In this document: piece by piece, positions 19,856-58,438 of the stretch
Position numbering within the stretch: the first letter of the stretch is position 1
Layout of the letters: each line of letters starts with the position of its first letter
Source of the DNA: Pelagomonas calceolata
Taxonomy: Eukaryota
Direction of reading: 5' to 3'
DNA length: 64,000 nucleotides
Assembly (NCBI GenBank): GCA_918797485.1
Contig: CAKKNE010000002.1
Span: 1,860,001-1,924,000 of the forward strand
Notes under the pieces: generated by a model
Database searches by the model: none
The model's input: only the letters and a program-made list of their open reading frames with translations
Told to the model about the DNA's origin: nothing
Program-made: the position numbers and the translations under genes

Positions 19856-20159
19856 TTTTAAGGTGCGAAGCTGTGCAAATGGACCAGAGGTACAGGCGGA
19901 CTGCGGAGCAAGCGGTTTGGTCGCGTGTATGCGGTGGTGCTTGTTTTGCAGCGGCGTGCCAGCGCCCGACAGGATTTTCACCATCGAAACTGAGGTTGAG
20001 TCGGGGGCAAGTGGCGGATGGGTGAATCAAAACATAACATGCGCCCAGAGGAAATACGCGCCCCAGAGGACAGGATGGAGGGGGAATAACCAGCGAGCGT
20101 GCCGAGCGACGCGGGTCGGAACAGCCAAAAGAGAAAGGGCAGCCTCGTATGAAAAGGGT

Positions 20160-20175
20160 GGTTTTTGTAAAAACC
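20160..20175 (-). terminator. Histone mRNA 3' stem-loop (H2B)
   Basis: On the minus strand, ACCC-GGTTTT-TACA-AAAACC-ACCC forms a 6-bp stem with a 4-nt loop, identical to the copy after H2A. Confidence 0.8.
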
Positions 20176-20282
20176 GGGTAGAATTGGGGTGTCCAGGCGG
20201 CCGTGAAACACGTGAATGTTTCAACAAGGCGCTTTTCGCTCGCGAAGGAGCCGCGCCGTTGACCGCGGACGGTGCGAGCTGT

Positions 20283-20633
20283 TTAGCTCGACGAGAACTT
20301 GGTGACGGCCTTGGTGCCCTCGGACACGGCGTGCTTGGAGAGCTCGCCCGGGAGCATGAGGCGGACGGACGTCTGGATCTCGCGGGACGAGAGCGTCGCC
20401 TTCTTGGAGAAGCGGCACAGCTTGGAGGCCTCGAGGGCGATGCGCTCGAAGATGTCGTTGATGAACGAGTTCATGATCGACATGCCCTTCTTGGAGATGC
20501 CCGTGTCGGGGTGCACCTGCTTGAGCACGCGGTAGATGTACGTCGAGTACGATTCCGTGCGCGACTTCTTCTTCTTGGCGCCGCCGGCCTTCTTGGGGGC
20601 TTTCGCCGACTTCTTGGAGGGGGTCTTGGCCAT
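20283..20633 (-). CDS. H2B: Histone H2B
   Basis: [38 protein letters not shown]...[16 protein letters not shown] at 20633. Confidence 0.98.
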
Positions 20634-20650
20634 GTTGCTGGTGGTTGTGT

Positions 20651-20888
20651 GTTTGCTTTTCTTCCGATGTGTTGGTGTGGAGGGCAGCCCGCTGGAGCGC
20701 ACACATTTCCGGGGCGCGGGCGAGCCGCTAACTTTTGGCGACGAATGAAATTGTGACCCTAGTATCTTTTTCCCCTCTAGGGTCGCAAAATGATTCGTCG
20801 CCAAAAATTAGCGGCGCGCTGACGCCCCGGAAATGTGTGCGCTCCAGCGGGCTGCCCTCCACTCCAACACATCGGAAAAAAAACAAAC
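20651..20888. promoter_or_regulatory. Palindromic bidirectional H2B/H2A promoter (inverted repeat, ~112-bp arms, 14-nt spacer)
   Basis: 20651-20762 is the near reverse complement of 20777-20888, e.g. GGAGGGCAGCCCGCTGGAGCGCACACATTTCCGGGGCG / CGCCCCGGAAATGTGTGCGCTCCAGCGGGCTGCCCTCC. Confidence 0.85.
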
Positions 20889-20897
20889 TCTTACATC

Positions 20898-21287
20898 ATG
20901 TCTGGCAAAGGAAAAGGTGGCCGCGGCAAGGGCAAGGCCAAGTCCTCCGGCTCGTCGTCCTCGGCGTCCAAGGCTGGCCTCCAGTTCCCGGTGGCGCGCC
21001 TCAACCGCTACCTCCGCAAGGGCAAGTACGCCTCGCGCGTCGGCGTCGGTGCCGGTGTCTACATGGGCGCCGTCCTCGAGTACCTCTGCGCCGAGATCCT
21101 CGAGCTCGCGGGCAACGCCGCGCGCGACAACAAGAAGACGCGCATCGTGCCGCGCCACATCCAGCTCGCCGTCCGCAACGACGAGGAGCTCAACAAGCTC
21201 CTGGGCTCGGTCACGATCGCGTCCGGCGGTGTTCTCCCGAACATCCACGCCACGCTTCTCCCCAAGAAGTCGGCGTCCAAGAAGTAA
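20898..21287 (+). CDS. H2A: Histone H2A
   Basis: [53 protein letters not shown] and GGVLPNIH. Confidence 0.98.
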
Positions 21288-21343
21288 GCGCCTCGCTTGC
21301 TGACTTCGGCCGCTCCCACGAGCGCGCCAACATCATCTTACCC

Positions 21344-21359
21344 GGTTTTTACAAAAACC
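21344..21359 (+). terminator. Histone mRNA 3' stem-loop (H2A)
   Basis: ACCC-GGTTTT-TACA-AAAACC-ACCC, 57 nt after the stop codon. Confidence 0.8.
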
Positions 21360-21694
21360 ACCCTGGACACCCGAAGCAACCTTTGCACTTCCGCCGTCGG
21401 CCACCACCGAGGTTAATTTTTTTCCCCCTCCCGCCCCAGCCGTCCCGCGTCGCTCCCAGCTTTAGCCAGCGGCCCCGCGAAGCCCCCGACGTGTCCGCGT
21501 TTTTGCCCCGCACCTAATCTCTCCTCGCGCACGACATCGTCGTGATTTTTGTGGGCAGGGCAGCGGATTGCACGCATTACTTGCGTGTTGGCTGGAGAGC
21601 CGTCGCATTGCACGCATTACTTGAGTGGAGTTGGAGTTGGTTCGTGGGACGCACCCACCGGGCAGCCGCGGCCCACGCCCACTCCACTCCTCCC

Positions 21695-39095: not shown

Positions 39096-40424
39096 CTAGG
39101 CCGTTGTCCCCTGTCAGGAGGATCCCATGCCGGCCGTGCAGCCGTAGCAGTGGTTGTCGAACTTTATCCGCGCGTCACGAACGTCTTCCGTAGAGGTCAG
39201 GTCGAACACCGATTTTCCCGACCCTAACGGCAGATCTAATTGCTGGTTAAAATCGCAGTCATAGACCCGGCCGTCCCAATTAACGCTTAGAGTGGTCCGG
39301 CACATGAGATTTGGTGCAGTCTCATGATTGAAATTCCTAACAAGTAGGTCCAGGTAGTCGCCGAGCTCCCCTCTACGCGACAGGAAGTCCGCGAACCGTT
39401 TAATGGGCATGTTCGTCATCGTAAACAACTCGTTGAACGACACGCCGAAGTGCTGCTGGAGCTCCTCGGCGTACTTGGTTTGTAAAGCGTCTTGAGGGGG
39501 TGGTAAAAACGCTCCGAGCGGGTTATATACAAGATCTAATTTCAGCTCGCGTCCGTAGCCTACTTCATTTAATCGTCGTAAGCCTTCGATGCTCCGCGCG
39601 AAGACGCCTCGGCCCCGCTGCATGTTCACGTTCTTGTCCGAATAGCAAGGCAGCGACGCGACGACGTGCACCGCATGATCGGCCAAAAAGTCGGCCAAGT
39701 CCTCCTGGCCCGGTTCCGCCAATACGGTCAGATTGCACCGATCAATAATATCGACGTCGGGCCGCAGTTCCCGACATCTTCGCACGATCCTCCTAAATTC
39801 AGGCTGCAGCTCGGGCGCGCCGCCCGTAATATCTAACGTCGTCACGGACGGCGAATTTACCAAAATATCGAGGCACTTGTCCGCGACGTCGCTGGACATG
39901 GCCTCGTGGCGCCGCGGACTGGACTCGACGTGGCAGTGGTTGCACGCCTGGTTGCAGTACAGGCCGATGTTTAACTGTAAAACCTCCGTCGCGAAGCGCG
40001 TGCCGTCGCAGCCGGCCTGTTGGAGTAAATGTTCCGTGAATTCGGGAGCGCCGAGCTCTTCCAAGCACCGCCGCCGCCGCTGCTTCTCCTCGAGCGTGAG
40101 CTTTCTTTGACCGGACTCGCGCAGCTTCTTGGCTGTGAGCTGGAAGTCCTTGTCGTTTTTCATGTCATTTAACGTGTCGTCGACCAACGAGCCCTCCGCG
40201 GCTAATCTAGCTCTTAAATCTTTCAGCCCCTGCCAGTCGCCGCGCGCGGGCTTGCGCTTGACGGGCTTCGGTCTACTGAGTTTTATTTTTGCAGTGTCGA
40301 CGGGCGTGTTGTAGTCGGGGAGTGATCGGGTCGAGAGCGCCGCTCTGGTGCCACCGGGCGGCGGCGCCGTCGCGAGCGGCGCGGCCCCGCGCCGGGCGAG
40401 GCGGCGCGCGGCGCGGAGTGCCAT
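39096..40424 (-). CDS. arsS: ArsS-like radical SAM/DUF3641 protein, predicted selenoprotein (Sec at TGA 39116-39114)
   Basis: CNQACNHCHVESSP, DITGGAPEL, DRCNLT, VASLPCY, YDCDFNQ and HCYGCTAGMGSS-TGA-QGTTA-TAG. Arg-rich presequence. Confidence 0.88.
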
Positions 40425-41006: not shown

Positions 41007-43298
41007 ATGAGCCGCTCCCGCTCCAAAACCCCAAAACCCGCCAGCGACCAGCCGCGCATCTTCGTAGACGTCCGCCTCAGCGACGGCATGGACGGCGGGC
41101 TCATGGTGCGCGAGATCCTGGAGAAGCTCGGCGCGCGCGTCCTGCGGTCCTGGGCCGGGACCCGCGCGCGCGCGACGCACCTGGTCTGGAAGGACGGCGA
41201 CGCGCGGACGCAGGAGGAGGCGCGGAACTGCGGCGCCGCGGTCGTCGGCCTGTCCTGGGTGAACGCCTGCCGGGACGTCAACGGCATCGCGCCGACGCGG
41301 GGCCACGAGATCGCGCCGGCCGCGCGGTCGACGGCGCGCGCGTTCCTCATCCAGCGCGAGCTCGCGACGACGGCGCGCAAGCGGCGCCAGACGCCGCGCG
41401 CGCCCGACACGGCGCGGCTGCGCGCCGAGGACCTGCCCGGCAGCGACGACCCCCGCTTCCGCTCCACCACTTCCGGCGAGCGGACGCCGGCGATCGCGCC
41501 GACGGCGCCCTGGAGCGACGGCTCCGAGGGGGACCCCGCGCCGCGCACGGTCGGCGTCGTCGAGGGCACTCCAGCCGTCGAGGCGCCGCGCACGGCCATC
41601 CGCGAGGCCTGGTCCTTCACGCAGCGCGACCGGCGGTCGTCCGGCGCGGCGGCGCCGACGCAGGCCGTCTCGAGCGGCAGCGGAAAGCGGTCGTCCGCCG
41701 CCACGGACATCTACTCCCAGAGTGGCACCGAGGCCGCGCCGACGCAGCCGACGCAGCCCCAGCCGCCGCCCGGGACCCTCTTCTCGCCGCCGGCCGAGGC
41801 GCCCGCGCCCGCGCCGACGACGCGCGGCTCGCGGACGTCCGCCGCGGGCGGCGCCGCGAATTTACTATTGTCGGCGCGGGACCGCTACTGGGACGACGAG
41901 CCGTCGGCGCGCCGGCGCGCGCGCGGCCGCCGCGCGACGCGCGGCTCGCTCGCGCCGGACCCGACGCTGCGCCTCGACGCGCGCCTCGAGGCCGCGTCCC
42001 AGGAGTCGTCGCGGCCCCGGAGCGGCGCCACGGCGCGGTCGTCCCTGACGAGCCCGCCCGCGCCGGCCGCGCGCAAGCGCCGCCGCGCCGTCGGCGGCAC
42101 GCCGCCTGCCGCGCCCGAGACAACGCCGGCGCCGCCCGCCGCGCGGCCGGCGCCGGCCCAGCCGCGGCGCGGCGCGGCGCCGGCGGCGACGACAGCGAAC
42201 CCGTTGCACGCGCGCGCCTCGCCGAAGGCGGCCGCGCGGTCGCGCAAGCGGCGGCGCGTCATCCCCGAAGACCCTGCCGACGCCACGCCGGCGCCGCGCG
42301 ACGTCATCGTCATCGACGGCTCGCCCGAGGAGGCAAAAGCGGCGGCTCCGGCTCCGCCGCCGGCGCGGCGGCGGGGCGCGGCCGTGGCCGCGCCGCCGGA
42401 GGAGGCCACGACGAACCCGCTGCTGCGCGCGGCCGCGTCGCCGCCGCCGGCCGTGCCCGCGCCCGCACTCGCGCCTGCGCCGGCTGCACCGCCCCGCGCG
42501 GCGCCGGCCCAACCGCGGCGCGGCGCGGCGCCGGCGACTTCCAACCCGATGCATGCGCGCGACTCGCCGACGGCGAACCGCACGCGCCGGCGGTCGCGCG
42601 GCGCCGCCGCCATCGACGACGACGAGGCCGCGCGACCGGCCAAAAGGCCGCAGACTTTAGTCATATCCGCGTCCGGTGTTGATCCAGCGGGCCGCACGGC
42701 GCTGCGCGCGGCGGCCGCAGCCGTCGAGCGCGCGGGCGGCGGCAAAGCGCGCTTCGCCGACGACGAACTGCTCGCGAAACTCAAAGGGGTGCTGCCCGCG
42801 CGGGCGACACATTTGGTGGCCCAAGCCACGGATGAGGATGCGAAGCCACCCCGCACGCTCAAGGTTCTGTTCGCGCTCGCACGCGGCGGCTGTGCGATCG
42901 TGCGACCGTCTTGGGTCGAAGCTTCGCGGAGTGCGGGACGCTGGGCAGACGTCGACGACCACCTCGCTGGATATGGCCCGCCGCGGGCCGCAGGCGCCGG
43001 CCGGCGTATCCTCGACGGGCTGGCCGTGCACGTCGCTCCCTCGGCGCTCGGGCCCAAGGATCCTTCGTCGTCCGCGCTGACGGCGCTCGTCTCGGCGGCG
43101 GGCGGAAGGTCTGTCGCGTTGCGCCACGCGGCGGTCGCGCTCGTCGGCACGAACTGGAAGCCCTCGGACTGCCGCCAAGCGGGGTTGCGAGCACTGCACC
43201 GGAGCGGATGCGCACTACGCTTCCGATGGCTCTGCGAAGCCGTCGAGGCGGGCGACGCGGGCGCGGTGGCGCGGGAGTTGTACGCGACGAACCACTAA
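41007..43298 (+). CDS. Multi-BRCT protein with microcephalin (MCPH1)-like layout
   Basis: N-terminal BRCT (KLGARV...THLVWKDG...WVNAC), a long disordered middle and C-terminal tandem BRCT (THLV...RTLKVLFALARG...WVEAS; WLCEAV). Confidence 0.78.
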   Translation: MSRSRSKTPKPASDQPRIFVDVRLSDGMDGGLMVREILEKLGARVLRSWAGTRARATHLVWKDGDARTQEEARNCGAAVVGLSWVNACRDVNGIAPTRGHEIAPAARSTARAFLIQRELATTARKRRQTPRAPDTARLRAEDLPGSDDPRFRSTTSGERTPAIAPTAPWSDGSEGDPAPRTVGVVEGTPAVEAPRTAIREAWSFTQRDRRSSGAAAPTQAVSSGSGKRSSAATDIYSQSGTEAAPTQPTQPQPPPGTLFSPPAEAPAPAPTTRGSRTSAAGGAANLLLSARDRYWDDEPSARRRARGRRATRGSLAPDPTLRLDARLEAASQESSRPRSGATARSSLTSPPAPAARKRRRAVGGTPPAAPETTPAPPAARPAPAQPRRGAAPAATTANPLHARASPKAAARSRKRRRVIPEDPADATPAPRDVIVIDGSPEEAKAAAPAPPPARRRGAAVAAPPEEATTNPLLRAAASPPPAVPAPALAPAPAAPPRAAPAQPRRGAAPATSNPMHARDSPTANRTRRRSRGAAAIDDDEAARPAKRPQTLVISASGVDPAGRTALRAAAAAVERAGGGKARFADDELLAKLKGVLPARATHLVAQATDEDAKPPRTLKVLFALARGGCAIVRPSWVEASRSAGRWADVDDHLAGYGPPRAAGAGRRILDGLAVHVAPSALGPKDPSSSALTALVSAAGGRSVALRHAAVALVGTNWKPSDCRQAGLRALHRSGCALRFRWLCEAVEAGDAGAVARELYATNH

Positions 43299-43512
43299 GT
43301 ATAGATATAAGTCCGTGCTTCTTCTTACGTGTGCGAACGCCTTGTGCGCTCGGCTTGGGAGGGAATCTTCGTATGCGCGGCGCCTTGTGCGCGCGCGTCA
43401 AAAGGGCGAGCGCCTTCACCAATGGTAGCGGCGTGGAGGCAGCGAGCCGGGCGGGTGCCAGAACGCGAGAACCTTCGAGAAGACGTCGTCGGGCATCGAC
43501 CGCGAGTCAAAG

Positions 43513-43720
43513 ATGCGCGTTAGACTCACGCTCAAGATTAGGAAAAATTACGCGCGGGCGCTTTACAAGGACGACAACGCCACCCTCGATGATCTCCGCG
43601 AGGCCGTTAGGATGCTCGAGGATGCGGGACGGACCGCGCGGCGCGTGATGGGTAGCGCGCACCCTCTCACAGCGGCAACAGGACGATCTGCAAGCCGCGC
43701 GAGCCGCGCTCCGCGCCCGT
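43513..43720 (+). pseudogene. Fragment of a TPR/kinesin-light-chain-like repeat protein
   Basis: TLKIRKNYARALYKDDNATLDDLREAVRMLEDAGRTARRVMGSAHPLT is a C-terminal repeat with no upstream body. Confidence 0.55.
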
Positions 43721-43914
43721 ACCGAGTAACTACGAAATTCTCGGGAAACAAAAACGGGGTTAACCGCGTTCAAACGTACGACCTCGGACGTCAACACTAA
43801 AACAACGGACTGATTCACACAATATATATATGTTACAAGAGAAGCAAGTAAGCTTCGCAGTCTCGCCCGGCGGCGCGGACGTGGCACGAGACACGACCGC
43901 ACAGCATCAATAAG

Positions 43915-46900
43915 CTAAGGCGACTCGAAGTGCCGGCGGCGACGGCCTGACCCTGAGCCTGACCCTGAGCCTGATCCCGTGGCGCTGCGCGGCCGCCGCG
44001 GCCGGCCGTCGTCCCCCGCCTCACGGCGCTGGCGCCGTCGACGTCTGCGTCGTTCAGCGGGAGTCTCGTCGGCGAAGCCTTCGCCCTGGATCGGCGATTG
44101 GGCGTTTCCAAAGTACGCACCAAACAATCCGGCCGTGGCATCAGTCTCGAGGGGCGCGACGTCTCGTCGTCGGCGCCCGCTACGGCCTGTGAGCCTTCTC
44201 TTTTGCACCATGGTAGCATAGCCCAGTTGCACTGCTCTACAATCTTGAAACACTCCGTCCGGGAAGTGAGGTATGTCTGGTTTATCAAGTTCGGCGTGGG
44301 GATAGTCGGGTGAAATTTCGACGCCACAGCAATAGCAGAAGTCCGTGCGTTCGCGTGTACAAGGCATCACGTCCGTTGATTTGTGAGTCATATGATTGCA
44401 CGACTCGGGGTCATCCTTTTCTATCACTTTAAAACCTGTGTGGAATCAAAATTCGCGACGCGCTCGACTCCACGCCATCGCGACAGCTGCTCGACGGCGT
44501 GGAGGTGCCAGTTCCTCACCGCTCGACGGAGCCAGCACAGCCGTGAACCCGACGTACTGGTTGATTTCCACACAGCTTGAAACAACCGGGACAGCGCTGC
44601 GCGCCATGCTGTTCTCTCCACTCCTCCACCTCGACGTCGGCCCGCTCGCTACACTTGATATTCGGGTGCCACCTGCGTAGAATTCAACCGGTGAGTCAGG
44701 TTGCGTCGATGACGCAATGAAAATTGATTTCCGCCCAGGATCCACGGGCACTTGCAGCGGACGCACCATCTATAGGCGCAGTACGGGCACTGCACCATGG
44801 GGTCGCCGTCTCTAGGTAAGTTCACGAAGCTGCCGCACTTCAAACAATGTATACCTTCACCGAGCACGGATCTATCATAAAAATCGACGAACTTGCGGTA
44901 CTCCTTCCGCCCGAGCACGCGCCGCGCATGCAAATCAGATATATTTGTGGTGCAGCCGGCGTGATGCATCGGACAGCGAAGGGGAAACCTGTGTGGAAAT
45001 CAAATTTGGGCGCCCCGCTATCGACGCGACACATCCCGATGACATCCCGACGACTCCGTCTACTCGATGGCGTGGAACTGTTACGCCATAGACGCCACGT
45101 CGCCCATGTAATCGCGTCTGCTCGATGGCGTCGAGGTTCACGAAGTTCTCCCGCAATAACTCTCCGGATAAGCTAACTCAATGGGTGATTTCCACACAGG
45201 TAGAGACATCGAGATATCACCTAACGCAGCGTGGCAGTAGCTACGCATACAGCCGACGCAGACGTCGTGGTTGCACGACTGGAGATGTATAACAGCATTG
45301 TCCTCGGCGTAACAAATGCAACAGCTCCCCTTTTTCGTGAAGAGGCGGTTCTGGACCTCGTGGAAGAGCCGCCCGTAGTGCCTTGCGTGGTCCAGTTTGG
45401 GTGCAACGGCCGCGGCCTCGACCGCCCTTGGGGCCCACTGTTTTCTGCCGCGCGCGACGGCGATGCGCTGCCGCTTCCTCCTATCTTCCGCCGAGCCCCG
45501 GAAGACAATACCCCCGGAAACGCCCATGACCAGCGCGAGGAAGCCCCCAACCGCCAGCACGACGATGACCACCGTGGGCATCCTGTACTGTTTTTCTTTC
45601 ACAGGCTGGGACCCGTACAAGGGGTCGTCCCAGCAGAGCTCCCAGTACGGCCTACTTTCACGCGCGGGTCCCGCCGTCAAGCGCACATTTACAGTTGTGT
45701 TCTGGAGGTTCGTCCCGACGTTCACGTAGAGCCTCGTTAATACCCTGCCGCAGAAGATGCGTAAAGGTCGTAAAGTGCGTGTACAACACTCCGCGCCCGA
45801 GATTTTATCTCGACAGTCCTCGCACAGGAACACGAGCTGGCCCGCGGGCGTGTCGCCGCCGTAGACGGCGAAACTAATGCCCTGGCGCAGTTGGAGCGGC
45901 GCGTCGAAGGACACGTCCACATAAGTCACGGCTTCGGTCGCGGAGGCCGCCCAGCCGCAGTCGGGGTACGCCAATGTCGCGTTGCCCTGCCCCAGCGCCC
46001 AGGCCTTTGTCGTAGAAGACGTCGTGTACGTGAGCTCGTCGCTCGCGGAAGGGAGCGCGTACCGATGGCGTTCGAGCACGGCGGGCGCGTTGACCGTGCC
46101 GCAGTGGCGCTGGATATCCGTTTCCAGTGAAGCGCGGGGCGGTATCGCGGCGTGTCCGTCCACAAAGTCCACCTGCCGCTGCTGGACCACTTCCAACCGG
46201 TCGTCCATTCGCACCGAGAGAGACGTCTCCGGGGCGAGCTCGGCCCGCCACGCGGCCGTCAAACCTGTGTGGAAATCAACCAGTGAGTTAGGTCGTGAAC
46301 CTCTACACCAAGGAGCAGACGCAGTTACGGGGACAACGTCGCGTCGATGGCGTGGGGCGTGCGAAATTTGATTTCCACACATTGTCAAACGAGGCAGCGC
46401 CTTGCCCGCCGCAAGCCCGGGCCCCGCGATGTGCGCGTCCTCGGGCCCGTCTTCAGAAGCGGCGGCGAAGCCCTCGTCGGTCCCCGGCGTCTGGAGCAGG
46501 ACCTTGTCCGTTTCCGTGTTCGGCGCAGAGGCCACGAAGTAGTGCGCCAGGAAGCCCGTGCCCCAATCCAGGTCGTCGGAACCCTCTAACGTGGAATAGG
46601 CCACGCGGATCGCGCATCGGTCGGCATACGCCAATGACCCACAGGCCACGGATAAAGGTGGCGGCGGCGCGTCGCAGCCGCCTGCCCTACAGGAGAAGAG
46701 CACGGCGCCCGTGTCCGCTTGCGTCACGTTGAAGGACCCCGCATCACCTAAATCCAAGCGCGGGAACGCGACGACGACGCGCGTCGTCGCCGTGACCGGC
46801 GGCGCCAAGATCCACTCGCAGTCTTGCGAGGGCCGCGCGGCCGCGTCCGGCGCGGAGCCGTCGCTAAACAGGAACGACGACGCTCTTAACACAGAACGCT

Positions 46901-49397
46901 GCTGCGACGATGATGAGGCCCACCACTGTTGATCATCACCGGTCAGGGGCGCGAGGGGCACGAGGTGCGCGCCGCAGCCCTGCTGCGGCCGGTCCGAGAA
47001 GTAGGCCACGTCGAAGCCGCGGCCCGCTATTTCCGTAAAGGTCTGCAACCTCAAAATCATCTCGGGCCCGCTCGAGGCCAGCCACTTCGTGGAAGTACTA
47101 CCGCAGAACGTGTCCAGGATGGCGTCGTTGGACACGCTGCCGTCGTAGATTGTTAAAGATCCCTGGGCGCAGTCCGGTATGTCAATCGCGTTCGCCACGA
47201 GCAAGACGTTGGAACCGCCCCCTACGTCGACGTGCCAGTTGAGATCCAAACCCGACGCCAGCGTGTCCCCGACGTAGGGCGCGCGCACGGATGGTGCGGA
47301 GGCGGCGGCGAGCCGCATCTCGCCGTCGCCGACGCCTCTGCCTTCTGTGAAGGAGGCGTAGTAGCGTGCCTCGAACCCGAGGCCGTCGGGCTCCGCCTCC
47401 GTTTCCAACGTGACGTACAATGCATGTGATGAAGCGTGTAAGATGGGCGGGATCTCCTCGCAGCCCGCGCAGTCCCAGAGTAAGGTTGAGGTTGCATTTG
47501 CACCTCCATAGATCCGGAGCCGCCCGCCGCCCAGGTCGACGCGGTAGAACGCCAGGCTGATAGCTGAGACAATGGGTTCCGGTCGTACGAGCCACTCGCA
47601 CTGCAGCGAGGCGGCCATGGCGTCGGCCGGCGCCGAGCCGTCGCCGAAGACGAAGGAGGCCGCCGTGAGCACGCCGGGCTCGCGCACGTGGCCGCAGCGG
47701 TACTTTGGCGCGTCACTGTAGTACGCGAAGTCGACGGCGCCGCCCTCGGAAGTCGACTGGGAGAGTAATCGTAAAGTAATGCCATCAGAAGCAGGTGGCG
47801 CCGTGAAGGCGTCCGCGACCAACCAGGCCTGCAGGTCGGACGAGCAGTCCCACGTCTTGAGGAGTGGGGGCGACCCCGCCTCCTGATAAGCGAGGGCCCA
47901 CGTCGCCTCGTCGTCGCTCACCGCCCCGCCGTACGCCTCGACGACGTCGCCGCAATCGAGGGATAACGCGTTCCAGGCGATCGCCAAAAAGTCTATAGAA
48001 CCGCCAAACACTTTTGGATGTACGACCCACCTATAATCGAGACTCCCCTTCCAGTTATGCGGCGCTCGGATCGACGTCGCCGCGCCACCGACGAGCTCTA
48101 CTTTTTTAGAACCAGCACCGGCGTCCCAGTCCGTAGTTTCCGTCCAGTAGATGGCCTGCCAGCCCGTCCACTCGCTGGCCTCCTCGGTCACGGGGTCCGT
48201 GTAGTACGCGGAGCCGCTCCCGGACACGTATTCGACGTACAACGCGTCGCCCGACGCTTCTAAGGGAGGCGGCGCCGTGAACTGGCAGCCGGCGCAGGAC
48301 CAGAGGAGAGGAGCGTTTTCACCGTTCCCGTCGTAGACTTTCACACTACCTTCGTATTTTACGGACACGCGTTCGGCCACGAAGATTAAGGACGGCGTCC
48401 AGTCGCTGCGCGAGGGTGGCGGCCACGTTAGTGATTGTATTGAATGATCCAACAATGAAGGCGCGACCAGCCACTCGCACGCGTCGGGGCCGAGCATATT
48501 TCCTGTGGCGGAGGAACCATCTGTTAACAAGGCTGATGGTGCCGTAGCCAACGAAACCTCATCCAACGCCCCGTGCTCTCCACAACTACAATAACTCCCG
48601 ACGTGGCACGCGTCGGCGCCGGCCGCGACGTACCGCGCCCGAAATATGAAATCGGGTTCGTCCTCGGCACTGCCCGAAGCGCTACCCGGTGCTGAAAGTT
48701 GCACCATGACGTTGCCCCTTCGACCATAGACCCACTGCTCTGGAAAATCGGCGTGGGTCCACCGTGCCAGCAGGCCCTCGCCGTCGCTTACCGTGACGGT
48801 GTCGCCCTCGCGTAACGTGGCGGCCTCCACATAGACCGCCACGTCGCACTCCGTGCAATCTTTAGGATTGATCTTCCAATCATACAACAAGGGTCGGGGC
48901 GCTTTGCCGCTGGCCGTCTGCGGGGCTATCATGAGGCCTTGCGCCATCTTGAGCTCGACTTCGTAGGTCTCGCCGTCCGCCCGCTCGCCCATGTCGTCCG
49001 TGTGGGCCAGATACCTGATCTTGAAGCCGGAAGCGCCGCCTCTCGGGGCGCTAAAGGTGATAAGAGCAGCGGTCTTCGTTGTTAAGTAAAACGGCGGCGG
49101 CAGCACTTCCCCACAAGAAACACACCGCCACAGCTGCGCCTCGCTCACGCGCTCCTCGCCCTCGTACATGAAAATCTCGCAGCCGTCACATTGCAGTTCT
49201 TCGAAGACGAGCACGAGCGTCTGCATCGAACTGGAACTGCTCGGCTTGATGGCGTAGGTGCACTTGTCGCCCGGGTCGAGTCCTCCCTCGATATACGTCG
49301 CGAGGTTGAGGCGGCCCGTCAGTGCTGTGACCGTGGCGTCGTGGCAAATGGCCCAGGCGCCGGTGGCGAGCCAGAGGAGGGCCCAGAGGCGACGCAT
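43915..49397 (-). CDS. Signal peptide, ~7-8 CUB-like domains, TM and RBR (RING1-IBR-RING2) E3 ubiquitin ligase, ~1638 aa; exons 49397-46391, 46264-45208, 44988-44746, 44672-44584, 44435-43915
   Basis: Exons sum to 4917 nt (in frame). Repeated CxWxI...F..xDL...YDG...GF..xY CUB pattern. TM is VVIVVLAVGGFLALVMGVSGGIVF. RING1 is CCICY..CNHDVCVGC..RCPMHHAGC, IBR is CLKC..CPYCAYRWCVRCKCPWH...C and RING2 is RCPGC..IEK..SCNHM..FCYCCG. Confidence 0.87.
44436..44583 (-). mobile_element. Introner, 148-nt intron
   Basis: TIRs at 44436 and ending 44575. TSD TTTAAAAC/CTTGAAAC. Removal restores RCPG|CFKVIEK. Confidence 0.9.
44673..44745 (-). mobile_element. Degenerate, internally deleted Introner, 73-nt intron
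   Basis: Decayed TIRs CTGCGTAGAATTCAA / TTGATTTCCGCCCAG. Removal restores CKCP|WHPNIKC. Confidence 0.8.
44989..45207 (-). mobile_element. Introner, 219-nt intron
   Basis: TIRs at 44989 and ending 45199. Degenerate TSD GGGGAAAC/GTAGAGAC. Removal restores DISM|FPLRCP. Confidence 0.9.
46265..46390 (-). mobile_element. Introner, 126-nt in-frame stop-free intron
   Basis: TIRs at 46265 and ending 46382. TSD CGTCAAAC/TGTCAAAC. The ORF track reads through it. Confidence 0.88.
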
Positions 49398-49601
49398 GGT
49401 GGCTAGGTGTGAGCCGTCTGCGTCATCGGTCGCGCGGCATGGTTATTCCGTCCGGGGGCAGCCCGGCGGCGCGCTCAGGTCTAGGCACAGCGTCTGAGAG
49501 CGCCGCGCCGCGCTGCCGCTGAACCCGACCTTTTCTTGCATTTATTATGAGCCATCGTACGTTTGCTTCCACTTGTCCTAGGAGTCCTCGAACGAACCAG
49601 C

Positions 49602-49832: not shown

Positions 49833-50612
49833 ATGCCACACACCGCAGCGCTCGTCGTGAGCCTCGTTGCCAGCGCTAGTGCTCTCTCCGCGCCGACGTC
49901 GGCGCCCAAGGCAGCGCTCTACAACGCAATCGATAAATTCAACGCCGCCACGGCAATCGACGGAACCGTACCCATAGACTTTGGCGTGAAAGGCGGCGAG
50001 CTCGACAAGAAGTCTCGCGCCCCGCGAAATTTATTTCCGGACGGCTTCGACGCCGTGTCAGAAAACGTGGGCACAGCGGCCAAGGGCGTCATGGCGGCCG
50101 TCGACGCACTCGCCGGCGAGGCGTCGTTGGCCGCCAATGCTGCGGACACCTGGAAGACGGCGGACTCGCCCCTCACGGGCGAGTGGAGCAACCTCTGGAC
50201 TACCGCTGCTGATGCCACGTTCGATTCCAAGAGCGAACGCGGCGCCGCCAAGGTTTCCAATGTGGTGGACGCGAGGAAGGGCCGCATCACGAACGTCATT
50301 AAATTTACGGATCCCGAGAGCAAGGCTGATGCGCTGAGAGTGAGACTCACAGCCAAGGCCGTCGGGGCGCGGCGCCTCGAGCTCACGTTCCGCTGGGTGT
50401 GCGTGACCTTCAAGAAGCGGCTCTTCGGCCTCTTCAAGAGCGTATACGTCCCGCTCGTGCCGGCGACGTTCCTGGCACGCCTGATCTTTTTGTTCCGACC
50501 CAAAATCAAGCCCGCGACGCCGTTCTTCGATTTGCTTTATTTGGATGACGAGCTCCGCGTGCAGAAGACGGGCGAGGGGAATGTGTTCGTGCAGAAGAGA
50601 CTAGTGCAGTAA
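49833..50612 (+). CDS. Plastid lipid-associated protein/fibrillin family
   Basis: Bipartite targeting sequence (ASASA-LSAP), LTGEWSNLWTT and FDLLYLDDELRVQKTGEGNVFV. Confidence 0.85.
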   Translation: MPHTAALVVSLVASASALSAPTSAPKAALYNAIDKFNAATAIDGTVPIDFGVKGGELDKKSRAPRNLFPDGFDAVSENVGTAAKGVMAAVDALAGEASLAANAADTWKTADSPLTGEWSNLWTTAADATFDSKSERGAAKVSNVVDARKGRITNVIKFTDPESKADALRVRLTAKAVGARRLELTFRWVCVTFKKRLFGLFKSVYVPLVPATFLARLIFLFRPKIKPATPFFDLLYLDDELRVQKTGEGNVFVQKRLVQ

Positions 50613-50832: not shown

Positions 50833-52641
50833 ATGGTGTCCGGCCGCGCAAAGCGCCACGCAGCAATAGCAGGCATCGCCATCGCGACCGGCGTATTCAT
50901 GGAGCTCCTAAAAAACGCGCCGACGCCGCGCCGCGGCAACCCTATTCGCGAGCTCCTCTATGACGTGAAGCTGGAACGGCTGGAGAACGAGTCGCACTTG
51001 GCAACTACATTCCTAAGATCGCAGCCGGATGCGGAACTCGCGGCCTTCCTCGCCGAGAGCGCCGCCGCGACGAACTCGACGTTGGGCAGGATGAGGGCGC
51101 TCGCAAAACGAAGATTATTTTGGGGCCTGCAGCGTTGGTTGGGATTGAGCCGCACGGACGCCTCGGGCTTGCTAAGCATGGCGACGCTCTACGTCGGCTC
51201 GCACCAGCAGTTCAAAGCGCTGGTCAACGGCACGGCGGCGTCGCTCTTAGACGTCGGAAGCGGCACGGGCACGGAAACACAAAAGTTGGCAAATGTGCTG
51301 GAATCCGACGACGTCGCCTGCCTCGAGAGCTCCAAGGCCATGCGCGTCACATTAAGGGGGATGGGCTTTCGCGCCGAGGCGACGCCGGACGAACTGGGCG
51401 ACGAGGCCTTCGCCGCCGCTTCACTACTAAACGTGCTGGACCGCTGCGACGAGCCCGGAGCGTTGCTGAACTTGGTGGCGGATCGAGTGGCCGACGGCGG
51501 TCTGGTTCTGATCGCTTCTGTTTTACCTTATAGTCCGATGGTGCATGAAGGACGCTTCTTATCCCCGTACGGCAAGGCCCAATCACGTCGAGCGAAGCGC
51601 CCGTTGCAGGTGAAGCCCGCGCGGACCTTCGAGGCGGGCGCGATCAACTTCGTGAACAGCGTGCAAGCGGCGCGGCCGGGACTCCAACTAGAAAGCTGGA
51701 CGCGGCTGCCCTACGTCAGTTCGGGCGACACGGGCCGGACGCATTATGTGTTGGACCAGGCGGTCTTCGCGTTCCGCAATGCCATGAAAGACGCGCCGCC
51801 CGCCGCGTGTGCCAAGCGCGGTGATGATCAAATTTACAAGTGGCTCGGGACGCACTTTGAAGAAGGAGGCGATATGTTAGATGCGGGCACGGGCTTCGGG
51901 TCGCTCTGCTGGCTGCTGCGGCGGTCCTACGACTCGCTGACGGCCGTCACCGCGACCAATGAAGGCATGTACGGCGCCAAACCATTACGGGAGATGACGC
52001 GGAACCGGAACGTGAGCGTCGTCATCGGGAACTGGCGGGACGATGGTTTCTTGAGCGATCAGACATATGATGTGGTCGTCGCGGACTACCTGTTCGGCGC
52101 GACGGAGCGGTACTGGGCCTACGGCGCGGACGAGCTGCTTGGTAGGTTGTTAGATAGGGTGCGGCCGGGCGGCACGTTGCTCATCGTGGGCCTCGAGCCC
52201 TACGAGCTCGTGCTCGATAGGAACGAGAAGGACGACAGGCTGGTTCTCGAGGTCGAGGCCATCGGCGACGCCGCGGCGACGGCGGCGTTCGAGCCGAACT
52301 ACCGCGAGCTGCCCGAGCGCTGGATTCGTGAACGGATCGCGCGGACGACCCAGTTCAATGTTGTGGCCACGGAGCGGTTCCCGATGCGCCTCACGGCGCG
52401 GTCGCTGCAGCGGCAGCTCGTCTTCGCGCGCGACTGCCTCGTGAAGATCGAGGACGACGGCCTCCGGGCCGCCTTCGAGGCGCGGGTCCGGGCCCTCGAC
52501 AAGGAGCTTAGCGTGTGGGCGCGCAAGGGCAAGTCCCACCGCCGCGCGCGCAACTACGCGATCGTCGTGCGCCGCGCCGCGCAAGAAGGGGAGGCTGCTC
52601 CGAAAGAGCGCAAGCGGCGCTTCTTCGGGAAGAAGAACTAA
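50833..52641 (+). CDS. METTL9/DREV-like His-methyltransferase fused to a second class I SAM-methyltransferase domain
   Basis: SRTDASGLLSMATLYVGSHQQF, LLDVGSGTG, SLLNVLDRCDEP and WTRLPY fit METTL9. The second domain has MLDAGTG, GNW, YDVVVADYL and GLEPY. N-terminal hydrophobic anchor. Confidence 0.8.
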   Translation: MVSGRAKRHAAIAGIAIATGVFMELLKNAPTPRRGNPIRELLYDVKLERLENESHLATTFLRSQPDAELAAFLAESAAATNSTLGRMRALAKRRLFWGLQRWLGLSRTDASGLLSMATLYVGSHQQFKALVNGTAASLLDVGSGTGTETQKLANVLESDDVACLESSKAMRVTLRGMGFRAEATPDELGDEAFAAASLLNVLDRCDEPGALLNLVADRVADGGLVLIASVLPYSPMVHEGRFLSPYGKAQSRRAKRPLQVKPARTFEAGAINFVNSVQAARPGLQLESWTRLPYVSSGDTGRTHYVLDQAVFAFRNAMKDAPPAACAKRGDDQIYKWLGTHFEEGGDMLDAGTGFGSLCWLLRRSYDSLTAVTATNEGMYGAKPLREMTRNRNVSVVIGNWRDDGFLSDQTYDVVVADYLFGATERYWAYGADELLGRLLDRVRPGGTLLIVGLEPYELVLDRNEKDDRLVLEVEAIGDAAATAAFEPNYRELPERWIRERIARTTQFNVVATERFPMRLTARSLQRQLVFARDCLVKIEDDGLRAAFEARVRALDKELSVWARKGKSHRRARNYAIVVRRAAQEGEAAPKERKRRFFGKKN

Positions 52642-52652
52642 AACAACTGTGT

Positions 52653-53573
52653 TTAGACCGGCGGCCGCGCGTACTGGACGCCGGGAACCACGCCCGTCGT
52701 CGCGTAGAAGTCGTATTCTACGGAGTAGCCGTTCGACGCGAGGTATTCCTGGCGGGCCAGCTGGTCGAGGGCGCACGGCCCGCACCAAAGCATACAACAG
52801 CAGTCGTCGCAACCCGCGCACCAACAACAGACGTCGAGCGACTCGAGGCCGTACGCGCATCTCGGCGACGGGATACCCCATTTGCGCCGAATGCGCCGTC
52901 GGAGCGACCACCCGATGCAGTAGAGGCCGAGGAGAAAAATTCCCGCGAGGACCGCGCCAACGGCAAGGGCCGAGGAGGCACATGCCCGGAGGAACGCCGA
53001 TAACACCAGCAACACGACGCTCGCGACGAAAAGCAGACCACAACACGTCGTGATGCAACGGTGTCTCCCGCGGTGCCCCTGCTTCTCCATGAGTTGGCCG
53101 CACATATGGCACGGACAGCAAAAGCTCGCGAGGCCGGTACCAAGGTAGTCACTGTGATTAAATGAGTCGCAAACGTCCGTCTGGAACTTTCGCTCGTGTT
53201 GGTCCGGCGCCATCGCCGTCGCGCCCATCCGTAATTCGTCCGCGGTCGTCCGCCCCGACGGCGGCTCGACTGTCACAACCACCGCCTCGGCCGGCGGCGC
53301 GGTGGGCGCCAGCGGCTGCTTATATGACATTATCTCTGAACTGAGACTCCGGTCTCTCGAGCTCGGTCGCACGTTGCGGCCACTGCGCGAGTTCACCTAA
53401 TTGTTTCGTAGATCAGAACCACGCGTCGTAGCGCTTGGTCATGCACGGCTCACCGGCAGGACTGCAGGACTTGTCTGACTCCTCCGGGAGATCACGACGC
53501 GGACGGCGGCGATGATAAAAATCGCGCTAAAGAAGATGAGACCGTAGAACCGGGCGAGGATGTCGGCGCTCAT
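52653..53573 (-). CDS. PLAC8 / plant-cadmium-resistance (PCR)-like Cys-rich membrane protein; probable exons 53573-53454 and 53396-52653
   Basis: FCCPC, LRRRIRRKWGI and DCCCMLWCGPCALDQLAR. A 57-nt GTGAG..TAG intron adds an in-frame hydrophobic first exon. An alternative ATG lies at 53330. Confidence 0.82.
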
Positions 53574-55517: not shown

Positions 55518-56005
55518 CGCGGTCGCCGTCGCTGGCAGGTGTCGACAGGCTGGGTTGCGTGCCGCACAGGTGGGGCAGCGGCTCAGGGGATGCCTGCAGG
55601 TACGCGCTCTGTGACGTGCAGCGCTTCGCGCAAGCCGGGCAGCTTTTTGCCCAAGCTCTTTGTTGGGGGTGTGGGAGCAAATACCCGAACCTTATCCCCC
55701 GCGCCGCCCCGGAGGAATCCGTGGCAGCCCGACGCCCTGCGGGCGGCGGGCGGGCAGCCCTCAGCCCACCCCCTACTTGACGCCACAACAGAAACTCGCT
55801 GTGTTAATTAGCCACTTGCACGGGAAGTACGCGAATAAGGTAACGGCCGGCGCCGTGGAGGCATTATAGCATGCGAGCGTCGCCGCGTCGTGGCTGCCCC
55901 GCGGAGCGCTTTCGCTCCTGTTGCAACAGCGACGCGCAACCGAGGCTGCCTCCCACCTGCCAGAACGTCCGCGACGCGCGCCAACGCCGCCGTCCCGCAG
56001 GCATT

Positions 56006-56686
56006 ATGTCGCTCCGCAGCCTCCTTTTCCTCGCGATCGCGGCGCCGGCCGCGGCGGAGTACGAATGGTACGGGGTGGTGAAGCTGGCGCACTCGTCGGA
56101 GTACACAATGACGATAAAGACGCTGACCGAGACCATGAACCTCTACATCGCGGAGATCAACGAAGGCGCGGCGCTCGACGTGGCAGCGCTGGACACCATC
56201 GCCGACGGCGCCGAGTCCTACATGAAGACGTACGAGGCAAGAGACGGCACCATCGCTGACGGGGACGAAATCGATGTCGGGGAACAGACGGTCGTGACGC
56301 TCACGATGGGCACCGGCGCCACAACGACGTACGAGCTCCACGTTGGGGCGCACTCCCACCGCCGCCGCCTCTCGGGCGACGACGTCTACTTCGCCATCTT
56401 CGCCGGGCACGGCATCGACGAATGGGAGGACTCGTCGGCTCACTTCCTCAAGTGCGGCGCGGGGGCAGCGTGCGGGGACGTCGCGGCCGGCGCCGACATC
56501 GAGCTGGAGTGCGTCGGTGACGTCGACCACGCGGGCCACGACCACGGCCGCCGCCTCTCGGGCGACCACGAGGAGGCCGCCCCAACGTGCGCCAAGCCGT
56601 CGTCGAGCGACGGCGCGTCGACGCCCGCGGCGGCGGTGGCGCTGGCCCTCGCCGGCCTCGCCGGCGGCCTCGCCCTCTTCCTTTAG
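56006..56686 (+). CDS. Secreted, probably GPI-anchored His-rich protein homologous to the ZIP ectodomain (226 aa)
   Basis: Signal peptide, then YEWYGVV, HSHRRRL, FAGHGIDEWE..HFLK and HAGHDHGRRL. C-terminal SSSDGAS is followed by a hydrophobic tail ending the ORF. Confidence 0.82.
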   Translation: MSLRSLLFLAIAAPAAAEYEWYGVVKLAHSSEYTMTIKTLTETMNLYIAEINEGAALDVAALDTIADGAESYMKTYEARDGTIADGDEIDVGEQTVVTLTMGTGATTTYELHVGAHSHRRRLSGDDVYFAIFAGHGIDEWEDSSAHFLKCGAGAACGDVAAGADIELECVGDVDHAGHDHGRRLSGDHEEAAPTCAKPSSSDGASTPAAAVALALAGLAGGLALFL

Positions 56687-56853
56687 GCCTACCCACCGTT
56701 CGGCTAGGTCCCCCGAGCACAAGAGTAAGACTCGACGCTGTGGGTCTCGGGGCGGCGTTTTCTGTTCAAGTTACGGTTCTTGGGTCTGCTAATTAGCTAT
56801 TAGAGAGGTTAGAGAATGAAGAGAAGAAATGCGTTTCGGAGCGCGAGTACGGG

Positions 56854-58272
56854 TTAGCATTCGGGTTCGAGTTCCTGTTCCAATTCGGGCGCCCAGCTCT
56901 GCGCCGGAGGCGGCCGCTCGGCGGCGAGGACGGCCTCGGCGGGTACCTCTTCCTCCTCGGCCGCGAAGGCCCCCGCGCCTTCGTACCCATACGGGACTTC
57001 CACTCGCACATCCGCTTTGGGTATGGGTACCAGGGGCGGCGGCGCATCGGCCTTTGAGTCCGCGGCGTGTTTGTGCCGGGCCTTGTACGCGGGGCAGCCC
57101 GCACACGCGAAGCAGCACAGCGCGACGCAGCACAAGATAAAGACGAGGGCGCCGCACGCGAGGCCGGCGACGAGGCTGACGTTTAGTTTGCAGCACGCGG
57201 ACGAAGACGAGGCACAGCAGGTGTCTTTTTGGCAGCCTATCTCTTCCATTCCCAAGACTGTCCAGTCTTTCCACCGCCCAGTCTCGAGCCAAAAAACACC
57301 GCAGTGACCGTCGTGGAGATCTTCGGCGGCGCAAGTGCCGCACCCCTGGATGTTCCTGAGTGTGTCGAGCGCCGCGACGGTGTGCGGGCAGTACCCGGGG
57401 CCCATGACGTCGGCGCTCCATTGGTAGAACCCTGGGATGCCCAGCTGAGTATTCTTCTCCGTGCAGCCGTCCTTGTCGACGAAGGAGACGCAGTCCCAAC
57501 CGGTCTGGTCCCCCTCCAGGGCTGGGTCGAGCTGGAGCGAGTACCGCGCGATGAAATCTTCCGGGCAGCAGCCGCCCGCCTGTACCTCCGCCAGGGTCGT
57601 GCCGCAGCCGTACTCGTTGTCGAATTTACTTCCGTAGACGCTGACGCAGCACTCGCCCTCGGCCGCCAAGTCCACGATGCCATCGCCGTCGTTATCCTTT
57701 GTGGCGTCGACGGCGCACTCGTTGTCGCCCGAGAGGCGGCGGCCGTGGTCGTGGCCCGAGTGGTCGACGTCACCGACGCACTCCAGCTCGATGTCGGCGC
57801 CGGGGAAGACGTCCCCGCACGCCGACGCGCCGCACTTGAGGAAGTGGACCGACGAGTCCTCCCACTCGTCGATGCCGTGCCCGGCGAAGATGGCGACGTA
57901 GACGTCGTCGCCCGAGAGGCGGCGGCGGTGGGCGTGCGCCCCGATGTGGAGCTCGTACGTCGACGTGGCGCCGGTGCCCATCGTGAGCTCCACGCATTTC
58001 TGGGTCGTGTCGATCTCGATTTCGGTGCCGTGCGCGGCCGTCGCTCCGTAACAGTACGTCTGCATGTAGGACTCGGCGCCGTCGACGATGGTGTCCAGCG
58101 CTGCCGCGTCGGGCGTCGCGCCGATTTCGGCGATGTAGAACCTCATGGTCTCGGTCAGCGTCCTTATCGTGAGGTCGTACTCCGACGAGTGCGCCAGCTT
58201 CACCACCCCGTACCACTCGTAGGCCGCGGCCGGCGCCGCGACCGCGAGGAGAAGGAGGCTGCGGAGTGCCAT
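56854..58272 (-). CDS. Type I membrane His-rich protein (472 aa): same ectodomain plus Cys-rich domain, TM and acidic tail
   Basis: The N-terminal ~180 aa are nearly identical to the 56006 gene. Cys-rich middle and TM LVAGLACGALVFILCCVALCCF. ATG at 58272. Confidence 0.82.
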   Translation of the reverse strand: MALRSLLLLAVAAPAAAYEWYGVVKLAHSSEYDLTIRTLTETMRFYIAEIGATPDAAALDTIVDGAESYMQTYCYGATAAHGTEIEIDTTQKCVELTMGTGATSTYELHIGAHAHRRRLSGDDVYVAIFAGHGIDEWEDSSVHFLKCGASACGDVFPGADIELECVGDVDHSGHDHGRRLSGDNECAVDATKDNDGDGIVDLAAEGECCVSVYGSKFDNEYGCGTTLAEVQAGGCCPEDFIARYSLQLDPALEGDQTGWDCVSFVDKDGCTEKNTQLGIPGFYQWSADVMGPGYCPHTVAALDTLRNIQGCGTCAAEDLHDGHCGVFWLETGRWKDWTVLGMEEIGCQKDTCCASSSSACCKLNVSLVAGLACGALVFILCCVALCCFACAGCPAYKARHKHAADSKADAPPPLVPIPKADVRVEVPYGYEGAGAFAAEEEEVPAEAVLAAERPPPAQSWAPELEQELEPEC

Positions 58273-58438
58273 ATTATGCACCAAGTGGGGCAGCCACAAG
58301 AGTGTGCCTCGCGCTGCGCCGGCGATTCCCAGCGGGCCAGCGCCAATTGATTCGATCCAATTAGCTGCCCCTGGCCCCAAACGCTGTCGGGTGGGCCAAG
58401 GGGGGCTAAGTTTGCCCCCCATGGCGGCGCCCGCGATT

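Follow-up and report, generated by a model that had tools for sequence, protein, structure and literature searches.

A gene on the minus strand of a 64,000-nucleotide (nt) stretch of Pelagomonas calceolata DNA (contig CAKKNE010000002.1, positions 1,860,001 to 1,924,000; hereafter ‘the window’) encodes a protein that joins, in one chain, an array of CUB-like units predicted to be extracellular, a single transmembrane (TM) helix and a cytosolic RING1-IBR-RING2 (RBR) module, and that is, by its sequence, an RBR ubiquitin ligase (E3). This CUB-TM-RBR protein appears to represent a conserved, expressed family of receptor-type RBR ligases of ochrophytes that is apparently undescribed. No description of such a protein was found in literature on RBR/IBR proteins, CUB proteins, receptors and algae, of which subscription journals were largely uncovered, and none was found in PMC4327156. 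Databases carry automatic names only, for example ‘RBR-type E3 ubiquitin transferase’, so an earlier note on this DNA, which did not recognise the architecture as a described one, is borne out within the literature searched.

The open frame that starts at 49397 on the minus strand runs into a series of short repeated elements, each with an Introner terminal motif and a flanking imperfect duplication of 7-8 base pairs (bp) that starts with GT. Excising four GT-AG introns joins five exons into exactly 1638 amino acids (aa), ending at 43915. The gene and the parts of it on which this structure depends are as follows.

43915..49397, minus strand: coding sequence (CDS) of the CUB-TM-RBR gene, five exons, 1638 aa, from translation, poly-A reads and transcript contigs
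46391..49397, minus strand: exon 1, aa 1-1002, with the predicted signal peptide and CUB-like units 1-7
46265..46390, minus strand: Introner intron 1, 126 nt, GT-AG, 7-of-8 bp target-site duplication
45208..46264, minus strand: exon 2, with a non-repeated segment, CUB-like unit 8, the TM helix, the juxtamembrane linker and the start of RING1
44989..45207, minus strand: Introner intron 2, 219 nt, GT-AG, within RING1
44673..44745, minus strand: Introner intron 3, 73 nt, GT-AG, splitting the IBR
44436..44583, minus strand: Introner intron 4, 148 nt, GT-AG

Pelagophyte Introners have terminal inverted repeats, a target-site duplication of ~8 bp that supplies the 5' GT and a 3' AG at the element end, and they are multi-copy and polymorphic for presence or absence. 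The elements described here share these properties, as repeats and target-site duplications are found in the window, and alleles elsewhere lack the elements or carry others at new sites (Introner context from PMC9481584). The length of intron 1 is a multiple of three and free of stops, so the unspliced frame reads through it and retention adds 42 aa in frame; with intron 2, 3 or 4 retained, the frame closes before it has covered the whole catalytic cysteine region, and retention of intron 2 gives a 1377-aa product without the IBR and RING2.

Stranded poly-A raw reads from one sample (runs X21, X22 and X23, ~6% of each scanned) contain all four joints at the predicted positions, with 2/1/4 junction reads in the three runs for intron 1, 10/11/3 for intron 2, 41/22/19 for intron 3 and 61/42/39 for intron 4, and the first mates of these reads lie on the plus strand, as expected for minus-strand RNA. 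In addition, all four joints lie within one 2962-nt contig (X1), two further studies each provide a single contig (X2, 5054 nt; X6, 5099 nt) that contains the whole CDS with the four introns gone and 0 differences, and identical joints occur in X8 contigs and in the metatranscriptome X14; RNA is the recorded source of the raw-read runs and of X14, and a guessed label for the contig runs X1, X2, X6 and X8. Transcript contigs extend from ~49445-49498 to ~43814-43837. The earlier note had obtained one ~1638-aa frame by removing four Introners, which these reads and full-CDS contigs reproduce, and it had named a complementary DNA stopping before the RBR exons as one result that would tell against it; reads and contigs continue through the RBR. 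Contigs that cover intron 2 have a depth of 4.3 vs 39.2 (X1) and 35.4 vs 160.7 (X2), and intron 2 retention could yield a decoy receptor without IBR and RING2, while such contigs could equally derive from pre-mRNA or DNA.

Comparison of 18 ocean metagenome loci, found with RBR-region seeds so that the ectodomain is barely sampled, places the introns in time. One locus (L004) encodes aa 608-1638 in one uninterrupted frame at 97% aa identity to the window protein, another (L003) encodes aa 1208-1638 at 98% identity without introns, and L001/L002 encode nearly the whole protein, intron-free, at 71.5% identity, with L001 carrying the same neighbour genes on both sides as the window. Since intron-free alleles and orthologs hold the gene in a single frame, the four introns are insertions into an older continuous gene. 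Among wild alleles (L003-L016 against window positions 44239-45323), Introner insertions occur in 10 of the 18 loci, at 11 CDS sites of the RBR-tail region, and elements at the same site differ in length and sequence (~66/94/219 nt, 77/86/148 nt, 81/93 nt and 74/203 nt), which suggests parallel gains or remodelling after insertion.

The gene is under purifying selection, with a ratio of nonsynonymous to synonymous divergence, computed for allele L004 only, of ~0.10 in the ectodomain and ~0.02 in the RBR, where silent sites are near saturation and the value is approximate. Relative to L004, silent changes are present in 100 of 210 synonymous-capable identical-residue codons of the RBR and in 98 of 588 of the ectodomain (Fisher p 1e-17), despite a protein that is 98% identical, and this excess coincides with the Introner-rich zone. 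Old balanced haplotypes, recombination or insertion-linked mutagenesis are candidate explanations.

The encoded protein resolves into the following parts.

49350..49397, minus strand: predicted signal peptide, aa 1-16, basic-hydrophobic-AxA pattern
46530..49346, minus strand: CUB-like units 1-7, from cross-hits of family hidden Markov models (HMMs), an AlphaFold2 model and Foldseek
45501..45575, minus strand: single TM helix, aa ~1233-1257, hydropathy 2.72 (next best 1.23)
45438..45497, minus strand: basic stretch after the TM helix, from sequence
44952..45323, minus strand: RING1, C1317-C1367, C3HC4, split by intron 2
44651..44846, minus strand: IBR, C1403-C1443, C6HC, split by intron 3, from Pfam
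44239..44593, minus strand: RING2/Rcat, C1463-C1531, with a conserved, family-specific C-terminal extension
43915..44226, minus strand: cytosolic tail, aa 1536-1638, basic, of low complexity and poorly conserved between classes

The CUB-like units cover aa 18-131, 140-258, 272-420 and 430-562 (units 1-4) and aa 568-682, 692-802 and 808-956 (units 5-7), and HMMs made for each repeat of the family alignment divide them into two alternating subtypes, odd and even, the odd units having an invariant DGS motif in the family consensus. Family HMMs also detect a divergent CUB-like unit 8 at aa ~1057-1215, and a segment of exon 2 at aa ~1003-1089 (~55-90 aa) is non-repeated, matches nothing else in the protein and contains an invariant DG and CG. 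Pfam places CUB in three stretches of the protein (E 9e-21), and the AlphaFold2 prediction for exon 1, made from 5 sequences with a mean pLDDT of 57, consists of repeated beta-sandwiches that Foldseek matches to CUB proteins, with cubilin on top (E 4e-21). When the ESM Atlas was searched with the membrane-proximal part, there were only leads scoring below 0.9, nearly all of them CUB, and a whole homolog as query gave no usable match there.

Within the RBR, the RING1 ligands are C1317, C1320, C1333, H1335, C1338, C1341, C1360 and C1367, and the IBR scores above the cut-off for Pfam PF01485/PF22191 and keeps all eight ligands in 29/29 aligned sequences. The predicted catalytic residue, C1478, has its codon at 44400-44398 (minus strand); it and H1480, D1497 and E1471 are each invariant in 29/29 aligned sequences and have the spacing of fly parkin C449, H451, E462 and E444 (PMC3709501), a match made by spacing with no alignment tool. 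The RING2 set Glu-Cys-His-His-Asp is kept in 52/53 full-length proteins, the exception being a gapped gene model. For one TM-RBR homolog, P0048, a structure model built on 33 sequences has high confidence in the TM helix and RING1-IBR, with a RING1 pLDDT >90, and the top matches of the homolog structure model are all RBR ligases (for RING1, Z 9.7 and a root-mean-square deviation of 2.5 Å over 87 residues); the sole match of the RBR profile in a PDB sequence search was the HOIP IBR. Pfam scans for known accessory or autoinhibitory domains of RBR proteins (Ariadne, UBL, UBA) detected none.

These data bear on the protein features that the earlier note had proposed. Its ~7-8 CUB-like repeats are resolved into eight units by the family HMMs and the Pfam CUB matches, its TM helix with a basic stop-transfer corresponds to the one hydropathy peak and the basic stretch after it, and its complete RING1-IBR-RING2 with a catalytic-type cysteine is recovered in the ligand sets and in C1478, with the qualification that the third RING2 ligand is His. 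Its signal peptide stands as a fit to the sequence pattern, not as the output of a predictor; most full-length homologs have a hydrophobic N-terminus.

A search with the frame from the window found 4 full-length relatives, one with the RBR region, among proteins of 890-2834 aa, found 28, each with a single TM helix ahead of the RBR, and one for shorter proteins found 69 fragments; a HMMER scan of 1.84 billion representatives with a homolog (P0025) added more relatives (the best 150 of 760). Among the 295 proteins collected (a redundant set that includes the window protein), the full architecture is present in 53 proteins of at least 1300 aa. A family-type RING1 occurs in 110 proteins, of which 69 have an upstream ectodomain match and 35 are too short upstream; in the other 6, unit 8's end and the TM helix can be made out by eye, and none of the 110 clearly lacks the ectodomain. 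Named holders are Chrysophaeum taylorii, Pelagophyceae CCMP2097, Triparma species, Epipyxis, a ‘Paraphy...’ entry and Chrysophyte H1, and fragments that bear the names Heterosigma akashiwo and Florenciella parvula match full-length proteins at 100% identity. By these sequence matches, the family spans pelagophytes, dictyochophytes, bolidophytes, raphidophytes and chrysophytes. Two class assignments were made by lookup, and the named holders other than these and Triparma stand in the classes to which we take them to belong. Triparma was assigned via PMC10328945.

Family-wide identity, taken over blocks of 50 residues, is 37-66% for the RBR and 14-39% for the ectodomain, and Cys, Trp and Gly residues that never vary occur throughout. 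In midpoint-rooted FastTree trees of 24 chosen full-length sequences, the window protein falls in the pelagophyte clade, and the ectodomain and RBR trees contain the same well-supported groups, the sole conflict being the weakly supported position of Heterosigma. This agreement in well-supported groups suggests one old fusion before the ochrophyte radiation. Soluble sister RBR proteins (P0178 from Mucochytrium quahogii, P0171 and P0188) share the His at the third RING2 position and an HFP..G..C extension with the family and, in contrast to it, lack a CUB ectodomain; P0178 shows a weak MBT-like match at its N-terminus and P0188 a C-terminal PLAC8 domain. The fusion may have originated in the RBR subfamily to which these proteins belong.

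The same data bear on the proposal that the gene is an artefact, either two adjacent genes joined by wrong intron calls or an inactive relic. Most ectodomain-only and RBR-only database entries do look like separate proteins, and contigs covering intron 2 exist. Against this stand full-length transcript contigs, intron-free single frames, dozens of full-length orthologs and invariant catalytic residues, and many ectodomain-only entries stop at one place past the last ectodomain Cys, as expected of gene calls cut at an intron. The two-gene version is refuted by single contigs that span the whole spliced CDS (X2, X6), and an artefact of either kind is extremely improbable. Many database entries (P0066, P0073, P0087, P0090, P0093, P0095, P0097, P0101 and others) break off either directly past the final Cys of the ectodomain or within the ‘DFC’ motif of RING2, shared end points that point to shared intron positions in chrysophyte-type genes. 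The possibility that representative matches include true ectodomain-only members was rejected, as they resemble gene calls that were probably cut at a shared intron.

For a CUB-TM-RBR protein that is genuine, the reading that we hold to be somewhat better than an even bet is one of receptor control, in which the CUB array would bind partner proteins outside the cell or in the endosomal lumen and the tethered RBR would ubiquitylate the tails of those partners, or the protein itself, leading to internalisation and degradation. The protein would reside in the plasma or endosomal membrane, where its ectodomain would select the substrate or ligand. In RBR chemistry, RING1 binds E2~ubiquitin, a thioester forms on a RING2 Cys and ubiquitin is transferred to the substrate (PMC7458406), so that here C1478 would be expected to carry the thioester and pass ubiquitin to a substrate lysine. 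Its substrates would be those membrane proteins that an RBR tethered ~40-70 residues beneath the membrane can reach, and the tagged partner, or the ligase, would be endocytosed and degraded. With the RBR at this distance in the 30 sequences measured, the simplest reading is that the protein follows the logic of described membrane-spanning E3s, which are type I RING proteins that ubiquitylate receptors and so remove them from the surface (bioRxiv 10.1101/2025.09.11.675358).

Several points weigh against this reading. The preference for receptor control over its rivals is drawn by analogy, and the signal peptide was judged solely from its sequence pattern. Many chrysophyte-type members have Asp as the sixth RING1 ligand, 29/29 sequences have His (H1483 in the window protein) at the third RING2 zinc position, where parkin has Cys, and RING2 of the P0048 model has a pLDDT of 40-50, with ligand candidates that are invariant in the family. 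A YxxPhi motif in the linker, present in 26/29 sequences vs ~17 expected from shuffles, is a weak signal, as its positions are unaligned and the sequences related (29 of 34 sequences were counted and the sum was made by hand). In addition, the CUB unit that was aligned to cubilin, in a distant alignment, has no calcium-site residues.

A second explanation, the one favoured in the earlier note, is a ligand-gated signalling receptor, comparable to a receptor kinase with an E3 output, in which ligand binding to, or clustering of, the CUB array switches on an autoinhibited RBR that ubiquitylates cytosolic effectors. RBR proteins are typically autoinhibited and allosterically activated, which makes them more switchable than a plain RING (PMC7458406), and RNF144A is regulated by TM self-association, as known from the title of a paper in the references of that source. 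The large ectodomain with its fixed domain count fits such a switch, and the highly conserved RING2 extension and the helix that follows could be regulatory. However, one TM helix and a variable linker between it and RING1 (40-70 aa in 30 of 36 sequences, 6 being skipped by the search pattern) leave clustering as the sole route for a signal, and none of the known autoinhibitory domains named above was detected. A strict GxxxG motif occurs in just 9 of the 30 TM helices measured and was rejected as a family feature; a homodimer prediction with two copies of aa 1004-1313 scored 0.00, with no alignment used and the fold uncertain, and speaks neither for nor against dimers. Since described receptor-type E3s remove receptors from the membrane, selection of partners by the ectodomain would be, on this analogy, no less likely than a ligand gate of the on/off kind, and we regard the gated receptor as unlikely.

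The distribution of the family is relevant to a third explanation, a cubilin-like uptake receptor whose CUB array captures proteins, particles or bacterial prey and whose self-ubiquitylation delivers them to endosomes or food vacuoles. Neither a diatom nor a brown alga nor an oomycete is among the named matches, although most matches are nameless and the clades P0092 and P0111 have no taxon. In Supplementary Data 3 of PMC10328945, CUB domain IPR000859 is listed for 28 proteins in eight parmaleans vs 1 in five diatoms, or 2-6 vs 0-1 proteins per genome, and IPR035914 for 35 vs 0. Because these counts are near zero in five diatom genomes, loss of the family in diatoms is suggested. The holders include chrysophytes and dictyochophytes, which are described as phago-mixotrophs, and parmaleans, which are predicted to be so, and diatoms are reported to have lost phagocytosis genes (PMC10328945). 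However, diatoms also lost IFT-A and the BBSome (PMC10328945), and a flagellar role fits this pattern equally well.

Cubilin is the best match of the ectodomain in the PDB by sequence and fold, with a tandem CUB array in common, which favours uptake; at ~17% identity, however, the resemblance goes no further than a common CUB fold. Cubilin itself is not known to carry a TM or enzyme domain. Unit 6 of P0001, the only unit aligned, has Pro and Gly, in a distant alignment, where cubilin has the Glu and Asp that we take to be its calcium site. An uptake receptor is, on balance, decidedly improbable.

A fourth explanation places the protein in secretory-pathway quality control, as a lumenal sensor of the endoplasmic reticulum or Golgi, or releases the RBR and an Arg-rich tail by cleavage to move elsewhere, for example to the nucleus. 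The type I topology would suit any endomembrane, and pelagophyte tails carry runs of 6-7 Arg/Lys. These runs are not kept outside the pelagophytes, however, and poly-Arg was rejected as a family feature; furthermore, eight CUB domains in an array that carries 3-19 N-glycosylation sequons are reminiscent of surface receptors, so that this explanation has very little to recommend it.

Among known systems, the mode of work proposed under receptor control would be most like that of the PA-TM-RING and Attractin/MEGF8-MGRN1 systems, without membership in either. RNF43/ZNRF3 and the PA-TM-RING proteins (GRAIL/RNF128, RNF13) also combine, within a single chain, a signal peptide (here predicted), an ectodomain, one TM helix and a cytosolic E3, and no sequence relationship to the window protein was found for either group; in PA-TM-RING proteins the ectodomain is a small PA domain and the E3 a RING-H2 that uses no thioester step (PMC4021871), whereas the window protein has ~8 CUB units and an RBR predicted to be of the thioester type. 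The MEGF8-MOSMO-MGRN1 and Attractin-MGRN1 complexes similarly combine a type I protein and its large CUB-containing ectodomain with an E3 under the membrane (bioRxiv 10.1101/2025.09.11.675358). In those complexes the RING E3 is a separate protein and the ectodomain includes beta-propeller, PSI and EGF domains, whereas the P. calceolata protein is one chain with CUB units only and an RBR; Pfam gave no propeller, PSI or EGF match in it, and no MASRPF motif is visible in its cytosolic part. This likeness is likely convergent.

The RBR E3s parkin, HHARI/ARIH1, HOIP, HOIL-1L and RNF216 share with the window protein the RING1-IBR-RING2 order, the spacing of RING1 and IBR zinc ligands, the catalytic Cys-x-His, an acidic residue two before the fifth RING2 ligand and the RING1-IBR fold. 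Unlike them, the window protein is a membrane protein of type I and has its RBR behind a ~1200-aa CUB ectodomain, a His as third RING2 ligand, a family-specific extension and no known accessory domain detected. RNF144A/B, like RNF19A/B and RNF217, also have an RBR tethered to the membrane, and RNF19 and RNF217 have hydrophobic regions (PMC4021871). The RNF144 type has a C-terminal TM helix and no ectodomain, whereas here the only TM helix lies N-terminal to RING1 and the tail is hydrophilic.

Other features of the window are listed below.

39114-40424, minus strand: radical-SAM-looking gene, by look
41007-43298, plus strand: BRCT protein, from Pfam
49833-50612, plus strand: PAP-fibrillin protein, from Pfam
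50833-52641, plus strand: DREV-type protein with two methyltransferase stretches, from Pfam
52653-53330, minus strand: PLAC8 protein, from Pfam

The BRCT, fibrillin-like and radical-SAM-looking genes also flank the L001 ortholog, which implies no functional link. A short frame fragment between the BRCT and CUB-TM-RBR genes (43507-43730, plus strand) may resemble a repeated pelagophyte family of helical-repeat proteins. Elsewhere, an inverted duplication (56005-58273; 85-93% over several hundred bases) holds two divergently read copies of a gene for a secreted-looking protein, and a hairpin at 20651-20888, with 112-nt arms and a 14-nt loop, lies inside a 1.26-kb stretch (20129-21390) with 52-nt inverted arms that is possibly a non-autonomous DNA element.

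The described receptor-type E3s are animal proteins with plain RING domains (bioRxiv 10.1101/2025.09.11.675358; PMC4021871), so algae would have built this design independently and from another catalytic class, whose members are usually autoinhibited and thus could serve as a true signal switch. If the protein is a receptor with an RBR output, it would be an independent, single-chain counterpart of the animal Attractin/MEGF8-MGRN1 systems, and an ectodomain, TM helix and RBR in one chain provide a model for the control of an RBR across a membrane. As a tentative and rather doubtful extension, the family may descend from an ancestral ochrophyte receptor with a switchable, thioester-forming RBR output in place of a kinase, in which binding of prey, a partner cell or a secreted protein to the eight CUB units activates ubiquitin signalling or uptake, and which flagellated lineages, many of them phago-mixotrophic, retained while diatoms lost it; it would then be the first receptor-RBR class. 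As diatoms appear to have lost the family, a link with phagotrophy or with the flagellum can be tested, and the catalytic cysteine, which can be trapped, offers a handle by which Cys-to-Ser/Ala traps combined with proximity labelling would reveal the substrates. In this way, the CUB-TM-RBR family may give access to surface sensing, which is poorly understood in ochrophyte plankton, a group that includes very abundant marine primary producers and grazers.

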